A stretch of 14,227 bases of DNA. It comes from Acidobacteriota bacterium (GTDB lineage Bacteria > Acidobacteriota > UBA4820 > DSQY01). Below are positions 4,753 through 14,227 of this stretch, one piece after another; the stretch's first letter is position 1, and each line of letters starts with the position of its first letter. The position numbers and the translations under genes are program-made. The notes under the pieces were generated by a model, which saw only the letters and a program-made list of their open reading frames with translations, was not told the DNA's origin and did not search any database. The stretch spans positions 1 to 14,227 of the forward strand of contig JBMFSH010000053.1 of NCBI GenBank assembly GCA_049967655.1, read 5' to 3'.

Positions 4753-4754
4753 CG

Positions 4755-4775
4755 GGGGACAGGGGACAAGGGACA
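4755..4775 (+). repeat. Three tandem 7-bp units (GGGGACA GGGGACA AGGGACA) directly after the tes stop
   Basis: Read directly at 4755-4761, 4762-4768 and 4769-4775. Confidence 0.6.
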
Positions 4776-4865
4776 GGAAAGGCCGACGGGCTCCTTTCGG
4801 CATCTCCTCATCACGACCAGCGTCGCCGCCTACCCCCACCCGGAATGAAGGGCCCCTAAACCGTG

Positions 4866-5991: not shown

Positions 5992-6091
5992 AGGGGCGGA
6001 TCGGCGGCGGTCCAGCACGGACGAGGCGAATCCGGGGGAGCAAGTTAGCCGTGCCCGAAATCGGGCCGAGCACCGAGGCGCAGAGGCAGCG

Positions 6092-6574: not shown

Positions 6575-6697
6575 ATCACAGAGGCACGGAGACGCAGAGG
6601 AAGAATCAGGAGGGTGTGGCGGGTGACCCCCTTAGGCGTGAAATACCTGTTTTTCAATATGGAGGCTTTTTTCTCTGTGCCTCTGTGTCTCTGTGGT
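6575..6697. repeat. Hairpin element 1 (CACAGAGR subfamily) between nuoC and nuoD
   Basis: Left arm CACAGAGG CACGGAGA CGCAGAGG (6577-6600) pairs with right arm TCTCTGTG CCTCTGTG TCTCTGTG (6672-6695): 19 Watson-Crick, 4 G-U and 1 mismatch in 24 positions, extendable by several pairs on both sides. Confidence 0.85.
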
Positions 6698-6720
6698 GAA
6701 TCTCGCGTGGGGACCTTAGC

Positions 6721-7935
6721 ATGACCGAGATGAACCGGGAACGGCTCGACCTCAACACGGACGTCATCACCGTCAACATGGGTCCGCAACATCCCTCCAC
6801 CCACGGCGTGCTCCGCGTCATCCTGAAGCTGGACGGGGAGGTAGTGCTTTCGGCCGTGCCCGACGTGGGCTATCTGCACCGGGGGATCGAGAAGATCGCC
6901 GAGAACAAGACCCTCCACCAGGTGATCCCCTACACCGACCGGATGGACTACCTCTCCCCCATGTCCAACAACATCGGCCTGGCCATGGCGGTGGAGAAGC
7001 TCATCGGCTTCCAGATCACGGAACGCTGCCGGGTGATGCGCGTGATCTGCATGGAGCTGGCGCGCCTGTCGAGCCACCTCCTCTGGCTGGCCACCGACGC
7101 GCTGGACGTCGGCGCGGGCACGGTCTACTTCTACGCCTTCACGGAGCGCGAGAAGATCTACGACATATTCGAAAAGATGAGCGGGGCGCGCTTCACCGTC
7201 TCGTACGGGCGCATCGGCGGCCTGGCCAGGGATTGGCCCGAGGGGCTGGAACGCGAGATCGACACCTACGTGGCTCAGGCGCACAAGACCATCGACGAGT
7301 GCGACAAGCTCCTGACCCGAAACAAGATCTGGATCGACCGCAACCAGGACGTGGGTGTGATCTCGGCGGAGAAGGCCATCGACATGGGCCTCACGGGGCC
7401 GCCGCTTCGGGCCTGCGGCGTGGAGTGGGACCTCAGGAAAGCCTACCCCTACCTGGGTTACGAACGATACGACTTCGAGATTCCGGTGGGCGAGCACGGC
7501 GACTGCTACGACAGGTATCTCGTCCGGATGGAGGAGATGCGCCAGAGCATCCGGATCATCCAACAGGCGGTCAAGGAGATGGATCGCTCCATTCCGCTCT
7601 TCCCAGAGGATCCTGAATCGCGCAAGGTGTTTCTGCCGCCCAAGGATCGGGTCCTCACGAAGATGGAGGAGTTGATCCACCAGTTCATCGTGGCCACGGA
7701 GGGTCCCAAGACCCCAAAGGGCAAGGAGATCTACTTCGCCATCGAGGCCCCCAAGGGGGAGCTGGGCTTTTACCTGGTGGGATCGGGTACGAACGTGGCC
7801 CATCGATGCCACTTTCGCGCCCCCTCCTTCATCAACCTTCAGGCCCTGCCCATCCTGCTCAAGGGGGCCATGGTGGCGGACTGCGTGGCCACCATTGCCT
7901 CGCTGGATCCCGTCATGGGCGAGTGCGACCGGTGA
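6721..7935 (+). CDS. nuoD: NADH-quinone oxidoreductase subunit D
   Basis: NMGPQHPSTHGVLR, GYLHRGIEK, DRMDY, EAPKGELG and DPVMGECDR. Confidence 0.97.
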   Translation: MTEMNRERLDLNTDVITVNMGPQHPSTHGVLRVILKLDGEVVLSAVPDVGYLHRGIEKIAENKTLHQVIPYTDRMDYLSPMSNNIGLAMAVEKLIGFQITERCRVMRVICMELARLSSHLLWLATDALDVGAGTVYFYAFTEREKIYDIFEKMSGARFTVSYGRIGGLARDWPEGLEREIDTYVAQAHKTIDECDKLLTRNKIWIDRNQDVGVISAEKAIDMGLTGPPLRACGVEWDLRKAYPYLGYERYDFEIPVGEHGDCYDRYLVRMEEMRQSIRIIQQAVKEMDRSIPLFPEDPESRKVFLPPKDRVLTKMEELIHQFIVATEGPKTPKGKEIYFAIEAPKGELGFYLVGSGTNVAHRCHFRAPSFINLQALPILLKGAMVADCVATIASLDPVMGECDR

Positions 7936-7978
7936 GGGCCGAGAGGGGACGGCGGCGGATTTCTTCTGAGGTGACAGG

Positions 7979-8470
7979 GTGAGCGAGCAGGGCGTGGCGG
8001 AGCTGATCAAGAACCCCGAGTTTCTGGCCAAGGTGGACCGCCTCGTGAAGTCCTATCCGAGGCCCCAGACGGCGCTCATCCCCATCCTCCACCTGTGCCA
8101 GGCCGAGCTGAGGCACGTGCCCGTCGAGTTCCAAGCCTTCATCGCCGAAAGGCTCGGCCTGACCCCGGCCCACGTGAGGGGCGTGGTCACCTTCTACGAG
8201 ATGTTCTCCGAGGAGCCCCACGGCCGGTATCTCTTGCAGGTCTGCAAGACGCTGCCCTGCATGCTGAGGGGATCGGAGGCTCTGCTAGAGCACCTCCAGA
8301 ACAAGCTCGGTATCAAGCCGGGCGGAACCACCCAGGACGGACGCTTCTCCCTCATCACGGTGGAGTGCCTGGCCTGTTGCGACGGGGGGCCCTCGCTCAT
8401 GGTCAACGAAGTGCTGCACAAGAATGTCAGCCTGGCCGACGCGGACCGCATCCTCTCGGAGCTGGAGTGA
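7979..8470 (+). CDS. nuoE: NADH-quinone oxidoreductase subunit E (2Fe-2S)
   Basis: GVVTFYEMF, VCKTLPCMLRG and VECLACCD. GTG start preceded by GAGGTG. Confidence 0.95.
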   Translation: MSEQGVAELIKNPEFLAKVDRLVKSYPRPQTALIPILHLCQAELRHVPVEFQAFIAERLGLTPAHVRGVVTFYEMFSEEPHGRYLLQVCKTLPCMLRGSEALLEHLQNKLGIKPGGTTQDGRFSLITVECLACCDGGPSLMVNEVLHKNVSLADADRILSELE

Positions 8471-8475
8471 GAGAA

Positions 8476-8558
8476 ATGAACCACCAAGACACCAAGGCAC
8501 CCATGATCTTGTTTTCCCGCAGAGATCACTTCTTGGTGTCTTTGTGCCGTAGTGGTGG
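8476..8558. repeat. Hairpin element 2 (CACCAAGR subfamily) between nuoE and nuoF
   Basis: Left arm CACCAAGA CACCAAGG CACCCATG; right arm CTTGGTGT CTTTGTGC CGTAGTGG. AAGACACCAAG (8486-8496) is the exact reverse complement of 8532-8542. Colinear over 83 nt with element 3. Confidence 0.8.
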
Positions 8559-8582
8559 GTTTTTACCCACAGAGGGCGCGAG

Positions 8583-9878
8583 ATGACGCAAGTGCTGAAG
8601 CTGCTGACGAGGAATGTGGGGAAGCCCAACTCGACTCACGTCGATGCCTACATGGGCTCGGGGGGCTACGAGCCCCTCATGACCGTGCTACACAAATGGA
8701 CGCCCGAGCAGGCGCTGAACGAGGTGAAGGCGGCCAATCTGAAGGGCCGAGGCGGCGCGGGCTTCCCGGCGGGCCTGAAGTGGTCCTTCCTTCCCAAGGG
8801 CAAGGAGGTCCTCAAGTATCTGGTCTGCAACGCCGACGAGAGCGAGCCGGGAACCTTCAAGGACCGCCTGCTCATCGAGAACGACCCCCATTCCATACTG
8901 GAAGGGATCATCATCGCCGGATGGGCCACGCAGGCGGCCGGTTGCTTCTTTTACATCCGGGGCGAGATGCCCGCCGGAGCGCGGATCTTCCAGAAGGCGG
9001 TGGACCAGGCCTACGCCAAGGGCTTCCTCGGCAAGAACATCCTGGGTTCGGGCTTCAACTTCGACGTCTGGGTTTCGAGGGGGGCGGGCGCCTACATCTG
9101 CGGCGAGGAGACGGCCCTCATGGATTCGCTGGAGGGCAAGCGGGGCCAGCCCAGGCTCAAGCCGCCGTTCCCGGCGGGCTACGGTGTCTACGGCGTGCCG
9201 ACCAACATCAACAACGTGGAGTCCTATGCCAACGTCCCGCTCATCATCAAGAACGGAGCCAGCTGGTACACGGCGATCGGCAGTCCCAGCGCCCCGGGTA
9301 CGAGGCTCTTCGGCATCTCTGGCCACGTGAAGCGGCCTGGCGTCTTCGAGCTCCCCTCTGGCGTGACCCTAAGGGAGCTCATCTACGAGCACGCCGGGGG
9401 GATCCTGGGCGACCGTCCCCTCAAGGCCGTTATCCCGGGCGGCTCTTCCGTGCCGGTCCTGCGCGCCGATCAGATCGACGTGACCATGGACCCCGACGGC
9501 CTCAAGACCGTAGGGACCATGCTGGGCTCGGCCGGCGTCATCGTCATGAACGACAGCGTCTGCATGGTCAAGGCCCTGCTGAATCTGATGGAGTTCTACG
9601 CGCGCGAGTCCTGCGGGCAGTGCACCCCCTGCCGGGAGGGAACGCACTGGCTTGAACTAATCGTGAGGCGCCTGGAGGAGGGCGGCGGGAGGCCGTCGGA
9701 CTGCGACCTCATCCTGGACGTGGCAGGCAACATCATGGGCCGCACCATCTGCCCCCTCGGGGACGCCGCCGCCATGCCGGCCATCTCCTTCGTGCAGCAG
9801 TTCCGGGAGGAGTTCGAAGCGCACGGCCGGGCGGGCCGCTGTCCCATGCGCGACGTCCGCATGACCGCGGCGATTTAG
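8583..9878 (+). CDS. nuoF: NADH-quinone oxidoreductase subunit F (FMN/NADH-binding)
   Basis: LKGRGGAGFPAGLKW, CNADESEPGTFKDR, GAGAYICGEETAL and ESCGQCTPCREG...ICPLGD. Confidence 0.97.
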   Translation: MTQVLKLLTRNVGKPNSTHVDAYMGSGGYEPLMTVLHKWTPEQALNEVKAANLKGRGGAGFPAGLKWSFLPKGKEVLKYLVCNADESEPGTFKDRLLIENDPHSILEGIIIAGWATQAAGCFFYIRGEMPAGARIFQKAVDQAYAKGFLGKNILGSGFNFDVWVSRGAGAYICGEETALMDSLEGKRGQPRLKPPFPAGYGVYGVPTNINNVESYANVPLIIKNGASWYTAIGSPSAPGTRLFGISGHVKRPGVFELPSGVTLRELIYEHAGGILGDRPLKAVIPGGSSVPVLRADQIDVTMDPDGLKTVGTMLGSAGVIVMNDSVCMVKALLNLMEFYARESCGQCTPCREGTHWLELIVRRLEEGGGRPSDCDLILDVAGNIMGRTICPLGDAAAMPAISFVQQFREEFEAHGRAGRCPMRDVRMTAAI

Positions 9879-9891
9879 GAGGTAAGAGAGC

Positions 9892-9974
9892 ATGAACCAC
9901 CCAGACACCAAGACACCAAGAGCTTCTTTTGTCATGCAGAATCGTTTCTTCGTGCCCTTGTGCCTTGGTGGTGG
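9892..9974. repeat. Hairpin element 3 (CACCAAGR subfamily) between nuoF and nuoG
   Basis: Left arm ACCACCCAGACACCAAGACACCAAG (9896-9920) against right arm CTTCGTGCCCTTGTGCCTTGGTGGT (9948-9972): 19 of 25 positions complementary. Begins ATGAACCAC and ends GTGGTGG, exactly as element 2. Confidence 0.8.
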
Positions 9975-9992
9975 ATCTTTCTTGAGGTTTGC

Positions 9993-11639
9993 ATGCCGCT
10001 GATCCGGATTGACGACCAGGAAATCGAGGCGCCCCAGGGCGAGACCATCCTCCGGGTGGCCCTCAAGCACGGGATCGCCATCCCCTACTACTGCTACCAC
10101 CCCGCCCTCTCCATCGTGGGCCAGTGCCGTATGTGCCTCGTCGAGGTGAAGGGCGCGCCCAAGCCGCTCACGGCCTGCTCGACCACCATAACGTCCCTAC
10201 CGCCGGACAAGAAGATCGAGGGCAAGTACGACATGGTGGTCTCCACGAAGAGCGAGACGGCCAGGAAGGCCCAGCGCGGCGTGCTCGAATTTCTCCTCCT
10301 GAACCACCCCCTGGACTGCCCCATCTGCGATCAGGCGGGGGAATGCCAACTGCAGGAGTACTCCTACACCTTCGGCGATCCGGCCAGCCGCCTGGAGTTC
10401 GAGAAGGTCCACGCCCCCAAGCGCGTGGACATCGGGCCGCACGTGGTCTTCGACGTGGAGCGCTGCATCAAGTGCACCCGCTGCATCCGCTTCTGCCAGG
10501 AGATCAGCAAGACCGGCGAGCTAACCCTCTCGGAGCGCGGCGTCTACACCCGCGTGGATACCTTCCCCGGCCGTAAGCTCGACAACCCCTACTCCGTCTG
10601 CACGGTGGACATCTGTCCCGTGGGTGCGCTGACGAGCCGGGAGTTCCGCTTCAAGGAGCGGGTCTGGTTCCTGAAGTCGGTGAACTCCGTCTGCCAGGAG
10701 TGCGCGAGGGGCTGTTCCGTCCGCGTGGATGCTTACAAGGGCGAGGTCCTGCGCCTGGTGCCCAGGGACAACCCGCAGGTAAACGGGCCGTGGATGTGCG
10801 ATTACGGGCGCCTCATCACGGAGCGCATGAAGGGGCTCGATCTGGTCGCCAGGCCCCTGCTCCGCTCGGGCTCGGCCTGGCAGGGCTATGAGTGGAAGGA
10901 ATTCGGGGCCGCGTTGGTGGAGAGGATGGCGGCCTCCCCGGCCGCCAAGTCCGATTCGTGGGCCCTGGTCTTCTCGGGCCGCCTCTCGCTGGAGGAGATG
11001 GCCGGCGCGCAGGCCCTCTCCCAGGCCTTTTTCAATCGCTCGGTGGGTTCGGCGCCCGATGTGGCCTGGGGGGAGGACGACGAACTCCTCATCCGCAAGG
11101 AGCGGCGGCCCAACCTCACGGGAGCCCGGCTGATGGGCATCCCCGTGGGGGAGCAGAACGTCCCCCTCTCGGGCCTGTTCGCCGGGAAAAAGGCGGCCCT
11201 GATCCTCCGCGAGGACGTGGTAGGAGACGCCGAGGGGGCGGAGAAGGCCGCCATCCAGAAGGCGCTGGGCGCCATGGACCTGGTGATCGTGGCCGACTCG
11301 TCCTTCACCGAGACCGCGCGGTTGGCTCACGTTTTCATCCCGCTCGCGGGCTGGCACGAGATGGAAGGGGTCATGGTGAACTTCCTGGGCGTCGCCCAGA
11401 AGACCGCCCGAGCGGTGGTTCCCCCGAGGGACCGCCGGCCCTTCTACGAGGTGGCGAGTCTCTGGCTCACGGCGGCCGGGCACGACGCCCCCGAGCCCAC
11501 CTTCCTGAGCTGGCACGCCAGGGCCAAGGAGTCGGTGCCGGGGCTGGCGGGAACCTCCATCAAGGACCTGCTCCCGAACGGGCTGCAGATCCTCGACGCC
11601 CCGGCCAAGGAGAAGGCCAAGAGGGGCGAGGGGGCATGA
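9993..11639 (+). CDS. nuoG: NADH-quinone oxidoreductase subunit G (short form, 548 aa)
   Basis: CYHPAL...GQCRMC...AC (N1b), NHPLDCPICDQAGEC (N5), RCIKCTRC...CPVGAL (N4) and CQECARGC...C (N7-type). GAGG RBS before ATG 9993. Confidence 0.92.
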   Translation: MPLIRIDDQEIEAPQGETILRVALKHGIAIPYYCYHPALSIVGQCRMCLVEVKGAPKPLTACSTTITSLPPDKKIEGKYDMVVSTKSETARKAQRGVLEFLLLNHPLDCPICDQAGECQLQEYSYTFGDPASRLEFEKVHAPKRVDIGPHVVFDVERCIKCTRCIRFCQEISKTGELTLSERGVYTRVDTFPGRKLDNPYSVCTVDICPVGALTSREFRFKERVWFLKSVNSVCQECARGCSVRVDAYKGEVLRLVPRDNPQVNGPWMCDYGRLITERMKGLDLVARPLLRSGSAWQGYEWKEFGAALVERMAASPAAKSDSWALVFSGRLSLEEMAGAQALSQAFFNRSVGSAPDVAWGEDDELLIRKERRPNLTGARLMGIPVGEQNVPLSGLFAGKKAALILREDVVGDAEGAEKAAIQKALGAMDLVIVADSSFTETARLAHVFIPLAGWHEMEGVMVNFLGVAQKTARAVVPPRDRRPFYEVASLWLTAAGHDAPEPTFLSWHARAKESVPGLAGTSIKDLLPNGLQILDAPAKEKAKRGEGA

Positions 11640-11685
11640 CCAGCATGAAGCCGAACAGCGAGCCGATCCAAGGGGAGGGGAGCAA

Positions 11686-12732
11686 GTGAACGCCTACTGG
11701 CCCATCGTGGTGCCCGCCCTCATCAAGATCGTCGTGATCCTAGGGATCGTCCTGACGGGCGTGGCCTACAGCACGCTCGCCGAGAGAAAGGTCTCCGCCT
11801 GGATGCAGGACCGGCGCGGGCCCAACCGGGTGGGCCCCTTCGGGCTCCTCCAGCCGGTGGCCGACGGGATGAAGTTCTTCTTCAAGGAGGACATCACGCC
11901 GAGGGAGGCCTACCGGCCCCTCTACCTGTTGGCGCCGTTCCTGACGCTCTTTCCGGCCCTCATCACCTTCGCCGTGATCCCCTTCGGGACCCAGATCAGC
12001 GTGGGCGGGCAGACCTACCCCCTCATCATCGCGCCCGGCATGGACGTGGGGGTCATCTTCCTCCTCGCCGTGTCCTCCATCGGGGTCTACGGCATCCTGC
12101 TGGCGGGCTGGTCCAGCGGCAACAAGTACTCCCTCATGGGCGGGCTAAGGAGCGCGAGCCAGGTCATCTCCTATGAGCTGGGTATCGCCCTGGCGGTGAT
12201 GAGCGTGGTGCTCTGGACGGGCAGTTTCGATTTCCGGCGCATCGTGGAGGATCAAACCGGGTGGGGCCACTTCTGGTTCGTCGGCCCGCAGTTCCTGGCC
12301 TTCATCGTCTTCACGGTGGCCGTCTTTGCCGAGACCAACCGCCTGCCCTTCGACCTTCCGGAGGGCGAGAGCGAACTCGTGGCCGGCTACCACACCGAGT
12401 ATTCGGGCCTCCGTTTCGCCATGTTCTTCATGGGAGAGTACGCGAACATGATCACGGCTTCGGCCTTCGTGGTGCTCCTCTTCCTGGGCGGGTGGAATCT
12501 CCCCTTCGTCAACTACGCTTGGTTCGGGCCGCTGTGGGGAGGTCTGCTCTCGGCGGTGGTCTTCTTCGCCAAGGTGGCAGTGCTGCTCTTCGTTTTTATC
12601 TGGGTGCGCTGGACGCTGCCCCGCTTCCGCTATGACCAGCTCATGTCGCTAGGGTGGAAGCGGCTCTTCCCGCTCGCCTTATTGAACCTCGTGCTCATCT
12701 CGACCCTGCTGGTACTGAGAGGCCGCCCATGA
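11686..12732 (+). CDS. nuoH: NADH-quinone oxidoreductase subunit H
   Basis: ERKVSAWMQDRRGPNRVGPFGLLQPVADGMK, AETNRLPFDLPEGESELVAGYHTEYSG and RFRYDQLMSLGWK. Confidence 0.97.
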   Translation: MNAYWPIVVPALIKIVVILGIVLTGVAYSTLAERKVSAWMQDRRGPNRVGPFGLLQPVADGMKFFFKEDITPREAYRPLYLLAPFLTLFPALITFAVIPFGTQISVGGQTYPLIIAPGMDVGVIFLLAVSSIGVYGILLAGWSSGNKYSLMGGLRSASQVISYELGIALAVMSVVLWTGSFDFRRIVEDQTGWGHFWFVGPQFLAFIVFTVAVFAETNRLPFDLPEGESELVAGYHTEYSGLRFAMFFMGEYANMITASAFVVLLFLGGWNLPFVNYAWFGPLWGGLLSAVVFFAKVAVLLFVFIWVRWTLPRFRYDQLMSLGWKRLFPLALLNLVLISTLLVLRGRP

Positions 12733-13226
12733 AAGTGACCAGGCCCGAACTGAGCTGGTGGGAGCGCACCTACTTCCCCGCCATCCTCAAGGGGATGAAG
12801 CTCACCTTCAGCCACATCTTCCGTAAGCGGGTGACCCTCCAGTACCCCGAGGAGCGCTGGACCCTGCCGCCCGGCTACAGGGGTCAGCCCGTGCTCCTCA
12901 CGGGGCTGGACGGGCACGAGAAGTGCACCTCCTGCAAGCTCTGCCAGTTCATCTGCCCGCCCGAGGCGATCCGCATCGTGGCGGGCGAGACGGAGCTGGC
13001 GAAGGAGAAATTCCCCAAGGAGTTCGACATCGACATGGGGCTCTGCATCTTCTGCGGTTACTGCCAGGAGGTCTGCCCCGTGGAGGCCATCTGGCTCAAG
13101 GATGCCTACGAGCTGGCGGACTACGACCGCACCAACCTGATCTTCGACAAGGAGAAGCTGCTGGCCATCGGCCGCAAGCCTCCGTACCTCCCCGGCAGGG
13201 AGAAGCCTTTGGAGGAGGGAAGATGA
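12729..13226 (+). CDS. nuoI: NADH-quinone oxidoreductase subunit I (2x 4Fe-4S)
   Basis: VTLQYPEE, CTSCKLCQFICP and CIFCGYCQEVCPVEAI. ATGA overlap with the nuoH stop. Confidence 0.96.
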   Translation: MKVTRPELSWWERTYFPAILKGMKLTFSHIFRKRVTLQYPEERWTLPPGYRGQPVLLTGLDGHEKCTSCKLCQFICPPEAIRIVAGETELAKEKFPKEFDIDMGLCIFCGYCQEVCPVEAIWLKDAYELADYDRTNLIFDKEKLLAIGRKPPYLPGREKPLEEGR

Positions 13227-13750
13227 TAGCCTCTGTCGTCTTCTTCGCGGTGGCCTTTCTAGCCTTTCTGGGGGCGCTCGCGCTGGTTTTCCACCGGCAT
13301 CCCATGGTGGCCGGCCTGGGCATGGCGCTCTCCACGCTCTCCATCGGCGTGCTCTACGTGTTGCTGAGGGTTCCGTTCCTGGGGCTGTTCCAGGCCATCA
13401 TTTACGCGGGCGCGGTCATGGTGATCGTGCTCTACATCGTCATGGCCCTAGGCCAGGAGGAGACCGGCCCGAGGGTCGGTGCGGTCCAGACGGGGTTGAC
13501 CTACGTGGCTGCCGCCCTGTTGCTGCTGCAATTCTACTGGGCCATCGTCCGATCGGGGGCGGGGCCGTTCCCGGAGGGAGCCGCACTGCCGCCCGTGACC
13601 GCGGGGGGGACGAGCTACCCCTTCGGCACCATTCAAGCTTTCGGGAGTCTGCTCGTGAGCCACTACTCCGTCCCCTTCGAGGTGGCCTCCCTCCTGCTGG
13701 TGGGCGCCATGGTCGGGGCGGTGATCCTCTCCCGCAGGAGCTGGTCATGA
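13223..13750 (+). CDS. nuoJ: NADH-quinone oxidoreductase subunit J
   Basis: Multiple TM helices; QAIIYAGAVMV and PFEVASLLLVGAMVGAVIL. GGAGG RBS and ATGA overlap with nuoI. Confidence 0.94.
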   Translation: MIASVVFFAVAFLAFLGALALVFHRHPMVAGLGMALSTLSIGVLYVLLRVPFLGLFQAIIYAGAVMVIVLYIVMALGQEETGPRVGAVQTGLTYVAAALLLLQFYWAIVRSGAGPFPEGAALPPVTAGGTSYPFGTIQAFGSLLVSHYSVPFEVASLLLVGAMVGAVILSRRSWS

Positions 13751-14052
13751 CCATTACCCTCGGCCACTACCTCATCTTGGCGGTGTTTCTTTTCGCGGTG
13801 GGCGTCATCGGCGCCCTGACGCGCAAGAGCGCCATCATCGTCTTCCTCTCTATCGAGCTCATGTTGAACGCGGCCAACGTGGTCTTCATGGCCATGGGGC
13901 GCTATTTCGGCCAGCTCGATGGGGCCGTTTTTGTGCTCTTCATCCTCGCCGTGAGCGCCGCCGAAGCGGCCGTGGGGGTGGCCATCGTGGTGGCCTTCAT
14001 CCGCCGGCGGGGAACGACCGACATCGATGCCGCCAACCTCATGAAATGGTAA
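13747..14052 (+). CDS. nuoK: NADH-quinone oxidoreductase subunit K
   Basis: LSIELMLNAAN and AVSAAEAAVGVAI. ATGA overlap with nuoJ. Confidence 0.96.
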   Translation: MTITLGHYLILAVFLFAVGVIGALTRKSAIIVFLSIELMLNAANVVFMAMGRYFGQLDGAVFVLFILAVSAAEAAVGVAIVVAFIRRRGTTDIDAANLMKW

Positions 14053-14060
14053 TGGGGTCT

Positions 14061-14205
14061 AACCACAGAGGCACAGAGACACAGAGAGTCAGAGGAAGAG
14101 GGGATTTCATGGCTTGCAATTGGGACAAGAGAGAGGGGAGGATCGGAGCAAAAGGCTTCCTTGAGCCAGAAGGCCTTTTCTCTGGGCCTCGCTGTCTCTG
14201 TGGTT
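14061..14205. repeat. Hairpin element 4 (CACAGAGR subfamily) after nuoK
   Basis: Left arm AACCACAGAGGCACAGAGACACAGAGAG (14061-14088) against right arm TTCTCTGGGCCTCGCTGTCTCTGTGGTT (14178-14205): 22 Watson-Crick, 2 G-U and 4 mismatches; the outer 10 bp are perfect. Arms closely resemble element 1; the loop differs. Confidence 0.85.
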
Positions 14206-14224
14206 TGCTGCTTTGGGGGTTGCC

Positions 14225-14227
14225 ATG
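14225..14227 (+). CDS. Probable start codon of nuoL (truncated by the window edge)
   Basis: ATG preceded by GGGGGT. The identity rests only on canonical nuo gene order. Confidence 0.45.

Follow-up and report, generated by a model that had tools for sequence, protein, structure and literature searches.

Hairpin elements in the complex I operon of an Acidobacteriota bacterium are very probably empty relatives of GxxExxY gene cassettes

The window analysed here is the whole of a 14,227-nucleotide (nt) stretch from an Acidobacteriota bacterium (contig JBMFSH010000053.1) and holds the complex I operon from nuoA to nuoK. Four hairpin elements with inverted arms of tandem repeat units sit between its genes. 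These elements are very probably empty relatives of a cassette in which such arms enclose a small gene of the GxxExxY family, and this status is much firmer than the mechanism behind it. For the mechanism, we propose a selfish intercistronic cassette that spreads by replacing the stop-to-start spacer via recombination, probably triggered by its nuclease, with the window elements as gene-less alleles. We give this proposal about an even chance of being correct.

Results

The nuoE-nuoF junction exists in filled, deleted and empty states

The window belongs to a 3.14-Mb genome (G000; 99.3% complete) and was compared with three congeners (G001, G002 and G003) and with other genera. The names nuoC, nuoD, nuoE, nuoF, nuoG and nuoK were assigned via NCBIfam. 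A preliminary description of the window, made from its letters alone, had reported four hairpin elements in two subfamilies, and both their positions and this division are confirmed:

Element 1, 6575..6697, nuoC-nuoD: arms 6575-6604 and 6669-6697 of CACAGAGR units; unique loop; left end without ATG.
Element 2, 8476..8558, nuoE-nuoF: arms 8480-8501 and 8528-8556 of CACCAAGR units; site of a full GxxExxY cassette in G002 and of its deletion form in G003.
Element 3, 9892..9974, nuoF-nuoG: arms 9896-9921 and 9944-9972 of CACCAAGR units; replaced in G002 by an unrelated 178-nt CACAGAG element.
Element 4, 14061..14205, nuoK-nuoL: arms 14061-14097 and 14176-14205 of CACAGAGR units; a different repeat family at this site in G001 and G003.
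Solo arm, 6071..6086, + strand: two degenerate units preceding the nuoC start; shared by the four genomes of this genus.

The filled counterpart of these elements lies at the junction of element 2. In G002, the nuoE-nuoF spacer is 515 nt long and contains a GxxExxY gene within CACAGAG arms (TIGR04256, 153 bits against a cut-off of 35). G003 carries a 121-nt deletion form of the same cassette that keeps the first 22 and last ~99 bases and has lost 394 nt, with a 3-nt microhomology at the join. G000 and G001 share a 112-nt CACCAAG element that is unrelated to the G002 cassette. Beyond the genus, the junction has short arm-free spacers in genera g3, g5 and g6 and different arms in g4, and in the distant genome G039 the nuoD-nuoE junction holds a GxxExxY cassette with 9-nt units. 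This series bears out the earlier suggestion that the window elements are cargo-less versions of GxxExxY cassettes.

Within the window, arms start 0-17 nt after a stop codon and none lies inside a gene, in line with the preliminary description. The right arms of elements 2 and 4 are degenerate. Folding z-scores of elements 1-4 are -5.3, -2.4, -2.1 and -1.8, with 0, 3, 3 and 9 of 200 shuffles folding as well. Contigs of relatives (DNA runs X2 and X6) cross elements 2 and 3 gap-free, and these two are therefore no assembly artefact.

Arms flank GxxExxY genes in many phyla and are dispersed through the genome

The association of arms with GxxExxY genes is general. Among 76 GxxExxY loci, which come from many phyla, 65 have inverted arms, compared with 1 of 67 control windows, and 58 have arms of the window's type (4 of 80 loci had been dropped for short flanks). 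The gene itself is present in 19 of 41 genomes searched, including all three congeners, and in 57 of 151 sampled genomes of the phylum. In relatives, the neighbouring homologues that were found included no opposite-strand gene at 21 of 22 loci, several of which lacked one flank, and a cruder open reading frame (ORF) test found both flanks co-oriented at 44 of the 76 loci. In one complete genome, G153, GxxExxY matches reach 27; many are fragments of half length that share the same score, which perhaps reflects a recent expansion.

Perfect three-unit arms number 73 in G000 and none in three shuffles, and thus are not due to chance; exact doublets number 32 for CACAGAG and 20 for CACCAAG. No perfect arm (0/73) falls inside a strongly scored gene predicted by our own gene caller. 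Arms are found in 94 spacers (53 co-directional, 22 convergent, 12 divergent and 7 at contig ends), many as solo arms. The common orientation with the CAC arm first, noted earlier for the four elements, is not an insertion orientation because a palindrome reads so on both strands. What stands is that the arms face inward. In co-directional spacers, a purine arm follows the stop codon (47 arms, median distance 17 nt) and a pyrimidine arm precedes the start codon (33 arms, median 28 nt). The stem of paired co-directional elements ends mostly 18-31 nt upstream of the start codon and thus leaves the ribosome-binding site outside.

Four-helix-bundle genes had also been suggested as cargo of these arms, which was not the case: window-type arms were absent (0/6) from the four-helix-bundle (TIGR02436) matches in G000, and all six carry other repeat units. 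These six loci (L001-L006) lie between co-oriented genes, have purine/pyrimidine arms of their own 7-8-mer units, and two look broken. Remnants of four-helix-bundle-type repeats sit in spacers together with window-type arms.

Cassette and flanking genes disagree at the leuC/leuD-like junction

In 23 of the order's 29 genomes, a second informative junction was found, between leuC- and leuD-like genes. Six of the 23 have no insert, eleven have a GxxExxY gene (three of them broken), and six, including G000, have gene-less arms. The arm units vary among alleles and agree within each allele. In G002, the junction (L153) holds a 465-nt allele with arms of 9-nt units around a ~330-nt multi-copy non-coding repeat instead of a gene.

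In the tree of GxxExxY DNA, G004, G017 and G018 from three genera group together (100/98), as do G020, G006 and G014 from two genera (93/95), and each group shares an arm type. The host genera g4 and g3 are rejected as clades on this tree (approximately unbiased test, p 0.00014 and 0.010). The cassette groups, once defined in this way, were tested on the flanking genes. In the leuD tree, g4 stays together and both cassette groups are rejected (p 0.00004 and 0.0024); the leuC side rejects one of them (p 0.001). This conflict between the cassette and flank trees indicates that cassettes entered one junction across genus lines without visible flanking DNA. The history of the junction would be either a single old insertion followed by exchange or repeated insertion at a hot spot.

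Arm-bearing spacers are replaced between congeners

Spacer turnover was measured against G000 at the nuo operons and at junctions beside listed arm matches, the first 30 for each congener (of 72, 48 and 33); 22 of 76 distinct comparisons were dropped for want of syntenic flanks. In 40 comparisons of arm-bearing spacers (25 junctions), which are not independent and come from loci selected for having arms, identity was below 0.6 in 19, 0.6-0.7 in 7 and higher in 14. The corresponding numbers for 20 comparisons of arm-free spacers of at least 20 nt were 3, 1 and 16. The proteins that flank the compared spacers are mostly 90-99% identical. The swapped region runs from stop to start and includes the stop codon and the ribosome-binding site, and the stop codon differs at 8 of 19 swapped junctions versus 5 of 58 kept ones. 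Alleles replace one another and do not nest. At nuoC-nuoD, G001-G003 keep the left half of the spacer and have a right arm of the CACCAAG type, a state that is identical in DNA-run contigs from several studies. An excess of mismatches in the flanks (p 0.027) was not relied on, given that it depends on a small number of alignments that have no gaps and in which the C-termini are changed. One junction of G000 (C17:49244) shows a clean gain or loss: its 2-nt gap corresponds to arm-bearing spacers of 191 and 419 nt in G001 and G003.

Could the elements instead move as miniature inverted-repeat transposable elements (MITEs) or as hairpin-forming doublets of repetitive extragenic palindromes (REPINs) do? 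The GxxExxY protein or another enzyme would then act in trans to excise the element or copy it into new intergenic sites, and selection would retain only the inserts at junctions. The numerous dispersed copies, the conserved ends, which have [G/T]AA beyond each arm, and a loop common to two neighbouring copies are consistent with such copying. Each congener has one or two GxxExxY genes, at four different junctions, and the protein tree groups the nuoE-nuoF gene of G002 with the leu-junction genes (90/84). However, loops are mostly unique (the exceptions are one pair and one shared half), and alleles are replaced together with stop codon and ribosome-binding site. The earlier remark that no clear target-site duplication is visible is borne out: the 25 nt next to the arms hold no excess of direct repeats (4.26 versus 4.22 nt in 50 filled and 4.25 versus 4.38 nt in 20 empty elements), in a test that duplications of up to 4 nt would escape. 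Arms were also absent within ~1.5 kb of Y1-transposase loci (PF01797; 0/17 in four genomes, some loci being cut by contig ends). We therefore regard MITE- or REPIN-like transposition as rather unlikely. The preliminary description had offered REP/MITE-like elements or empty cassette sites; in their behaviour, they resemble replaceable junction alleles more than MITEs.

The cargo is a predicted nuclease and the arms pair without an RNA signature

The cargo is a 125-residue GxxExxY protein with a PD-(D/E)XK fold (TIGR04256, PF13366). In a comparison of 20 sequences, residues E39, D69, E79, K81 and Y97 are invariant and Q93 is nearly so, and together they form a PD-(D/E)XK site and a QxxxY motif. 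The QxxxY motif is typical of RecB/Cas4-type nucleases. The structure model has a predicted local distance difference test score (pLDDT) of 93, and re-alignment places Cas4 SSO0001 best (Z 9.3, root-mean-square deviation 4.7, 100 residues aligned; next Z 7.7). A sequence search of the PDB with the G002 protein returned nothing at E 1. Conserved residues and modelled fold suggest that the GxxExxY protein is an active DNA nuclease.

Arms match their own partners better than shuffled ones in 50 cassettes (0.87 versus 0.55) and in 22 copies of G000 (0.75 versus 0.68, p 0.006). Among the arm mismatches of filled cassettes, G.T and A.C are equally frequent (46 each), which favours a strand-symmetric role in DNA over an RNA stem. 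Two counts of the G000 copies gave 46:34 (p 0.22) and 50:32 (p 0.06), and a G.U bias that would indicate an RNA-level role is thus not significant.

These data bear on the alternative that the cassette is a passenger like the intervening sequences (IVSs) of 23S rRNA. The arms would then form an RNA stem, whose cleavage by, for example, RNase III silences the cargo, and the cassettes would drift by ordinary host recombination or hairpin-induced breaks without involvement of the nuclease. The predicted RNA stems are stable, and the layout matches that of ORF-bearing 23S rRNA IVSs, whose 28-bp terminal stem is cut by RNase III according to the accessible text of PMC4990558. In addition, four-helix-bundle genes, the cargo of IVSs, have analogous arms in G000, and turnover continues in this genome, which has no nuclease gene. 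The absent G.U excess and the invariant catalytic residues argue against a passive stem, and four cuts in an essential polycistronic mRNA would demand tolerance. An IVS-like passenger is therefore unlikely.

Many elements carry mini-ORFs that bridge neighbouring genes

The preliminary description missed three mini-ORFs that bridge the elements of the window:

Mini-ORF of element 2, 8476..8586, + strand: 36 codons; ATG in the left arm, in the frame of a GTG that overlaps the nuoE stop; own stop overlaps the nuoF start (ATGA).
Mini-ORF of element 3, 9892..10002, + strand: 36 codons; stop 10 nt inside nuoG; kept in G001 and G003.
Mini-ORF of element 4, 14052..14227, + strand: 58 codons; ATG overlaps the nuoK stop (TAATG) and stop overlaps the nuoL start; not kept in the G002 allele.

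The frame of the element 2 mini-ORF is kept in G001. The last base of the element 4 mini-ORF lies on contig C99, joined by exact overlap. In G000, 8 of 19 paired co-directional elements (after exclusion of 7 loosely paired or long spacers) have a bridging ORF, compared with 2.6 under a null of shuffled loops and randomised frame (0/2000 shuffles) and with 14 of 304 ordinary spacers. Among 27 distinct alleles from relatives, 17 have an ATG and 11 of these also a bridging ORF, compared with a null of 2.6 (0/1000). Elements are not independent in these counts, as they include related alleles and shared halves. Furthermore, unrelated alleles of different lengths are each coupled at the same junction (114 and 178 nt at nuoF-nuoG; 112, 138 and 159 nt at nuoE-nuoF), and the bridging mini-ORF of the different nuoF-nuoG allele in G002 ends at the same stop as that of element 3. 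Judging from their reading frames, the mini-ORFs are probably translated and carry ribosomes on to the next gene, which would aid coupling.

Bridging ORFs indicate selection at the level of the host, as would be expected if the hairpins were host regulatory RNAs that tune nuo expression. The occupied junctions (C-D, E-F, F-G and K-L) recur in several genera, and the overlapping H-I, I-J and J-K junctions are empty in all loci examined. However, the elements are neither restricted to this operon nor fixed across relatives. Congeners differ in the sequence, length and repeat family of the elements, several genera have none, and the same arms occur in 94 spacers and around the nuclease gene. An Rfam scan of the window gave two weak miRNA matches only, far under the gathering score, which were rejected, and a terminator scan found 8 sites (4.6 expected), none at the elements. 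Regulatory RNA is thus a very improbable explanation.

Other features of the window and its surroundings

The right 77 nt of element 4 recur without a mismatch at two other places, where a second nuo operon on contig C7 ends and where the nuoL contig C99 begins. The second operon (C7:167-6062, L147) lacks nuoE-G and has arm elements at three junctions. Both it and the window lead to the single nuoL contig C99, a collapsed duplication whose boundary lies within element 4. In G002 (C7 ~200-330, L008), the stretch that separates element 4 from the true nuoL contains a decayed copy of the nuoL start, 17 codons long, and what is left of a right arm from another family; this may be a replacement intermediate that was never resolved. 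The 51-nt copy looked foreign at first, but other genera match it at 34-41 of 51 positions, hardly better than its own genus (37-39), and it may come from either.

NuoG (9993-11639) is short, with 548 residues and a reduced C-terminal part, and scores under the NCBIfam cut-offs. Positions 1-241 are the end of another dispersed repeat, with ~30 blastn pieces in the genome (85-94% identity, up to 235 nt), which is also present within arm-bearing spacers of G003. Positions 4753-4815, after a radical-SAM-like gene, are a solo arm of another 7-mer repeat family; the spacer that holds it measures 202, 236, 319 and 455 nt across the four congeners.

Discussion

In the cassette, which would be selfish, a GxxExxY gene is enclosed by inverted arms built from tandem 8-9-nt units. 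As we picture its spread, the nuclease would cut the arms or arm-bearing alleles, and repair from incoming DNA would swap the whole spacer, with ends near the stop and start codons. Invasion, decay, loss and re-invasion would follow one another in a homing-like cycle. Decay would leave gene-less hairpins, and selection would retain those with an unobstructed ribosome-binding site and a frame that bridges the genes. Cassettes are likely to be tolerated in essential operons because their arms do not cover the ribosome-binding site of the downstream gene and often hold such a mini-ORF. The first colonisation of a junction may have been a rare illegitimate recombination or a copying between paralogous operons, which is a guess.

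Several results weigh against this replacement cycle. G000 has 94 arm-bearing spacers and no GxxExxY gene detectable by TIGR04256, PF13366 or our own hidden Markov model, and none of its copies encloses one. Coding remnants were undetected in these 94 spacers and in 51 of congeners. Consequently, most empty copies are not established as deletion products; the G003 element is a clear deletion derivative and one in G012 a likely one. An adjacent pair of elements on C14 has a common loop (89% over 62 nt), which fits copying within the genome, and the mismatched nuoC-nuoD arms persist in G001-G003. Any co-conversion of the flanks would be limited: the mismatch excess in flanking genes fades within the last ~15-30 nt, and it is absent from the leuD of G018, a gene that is host-like from its first segment. 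Hence, there is no sign of long-homology recombination across genera. At the leu junction, the cassette tree lacks resolution at 11 of its 14 inner branches, a single clade for the 11 genes is not rejected (p 0.29), and the leuC test of G004 with G017 is not significant (p 0.064). Foldseek ranked Cas4, RecE and AddA at the top, none of them at E <=0.001. Finally, element 1 and 11 of the 19 genome elements have no bridging ORF, and related alleles inflate the bridging counts.

How does the cassette relate to known systems? Free-standing homing endonuclease genes are also small nuclease genes at conserved sites, whose states range from empty through intact and broken to gene-less and which pass between genera into one and the same site. 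The cassette differs from them in its inverted tandem-unit arms, its many gene-less copies and the replacement of occupied sites, and its 125-residue protein is a single domain without a separate DNA-binding part, whose nuclease role is predicted. The 23S rRNA IVSs with S23/four-helix-bundle cargo, as far as PMC4990558 could be consulted, resemble it as genes of ~430-600 nt in a stem, with sporadic distribution, horizontal transfer and ORF decay. Unlike them, the cassette sits between protein genes rather than in rRNA, and has nuclease-fold cargo, periodic arms and no G.U bias.

REPINs and their REP-associated tyrosine transposases (RAYTs) share with the cassette many-copy intergenic palindromic doublets and a partner gene that has these repeats on both sides. 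RAYTs are described, in the portions of the literature available to us, as single-copy and mostly vertical; the partner here has a PD-(D/E)XK fold instead of a Y1 tyrosine transposase, spreads horizontally to different loci and reaches 27 matches per genome. MITEs are likewise short, non-coding and multi-copy with terminal inverted repeats, but the window elements have no detected target-site duplication and their copies are not near-identical over the full length. Mycobacterial interspersed repetitive units (MIRUs), according to the accessible part of a review (PMC12548453), insert at a start codon and have an ORF whose coupling distance is -4, and thus are short junction repeats whose ORF couples to the downstream start. 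The elements here are coupled in only part of the copies, have long inverted arms and exist in a gene-bearing form. By the defining features of each class, the elements do not qualify as MITEs, REPINs, rRNA IVSs or four-helix-bundle cassettes; they are partly like homing elements and partly like MIRUs.

The cargo itself is a member of the GxxExxY/PDDEXK_3 family (TIGR04256, PF13366), for which the accessible text of PMC3424549 gives an unknown function and multiple transfers. The portions of these sources at hand mention neither arms nor gene-less copies, and one other paper, as far as its available text goes, does no more than place the domain near a reverse transcriptase. Our literature search found no description of the arm cassette; its coverage of subscription papers and supplements was partial, and the term "undescribed" is provisional.

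A more far-reaching version of the replacement cycle, which we may call junction homing, is possible but doubtful. In it, a minimal Cas4/RecB-like nuclease would recognise its own tandem-unit arms, cassettes would displace one another, across genera, in spacers within conserved operons, and gene-less remnants would serve as ribosome bridges and landing sites; this would be a new class of prokaryotic mobile element. If junction homing is true, four-helix-bundle cassettes would be a sister system that competes for the same junctions.

The new results are the series of alleles at a single nuo junction, the count of spacer turnover and the conflict between trees. They provide a candidate substrate and life cycle for a very common family of functionally uncharacterised proteins in many phyla, and account for a class of intergenic repeats that is missing from Rfam. 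In essential operons, spacers turn over wholesale, and the genes stay put. Four alleles at one nuo junction within one genus are ready test substrates, and a nuclease of 125 residues with a short periodic hairpin as its target could serve as a tool.

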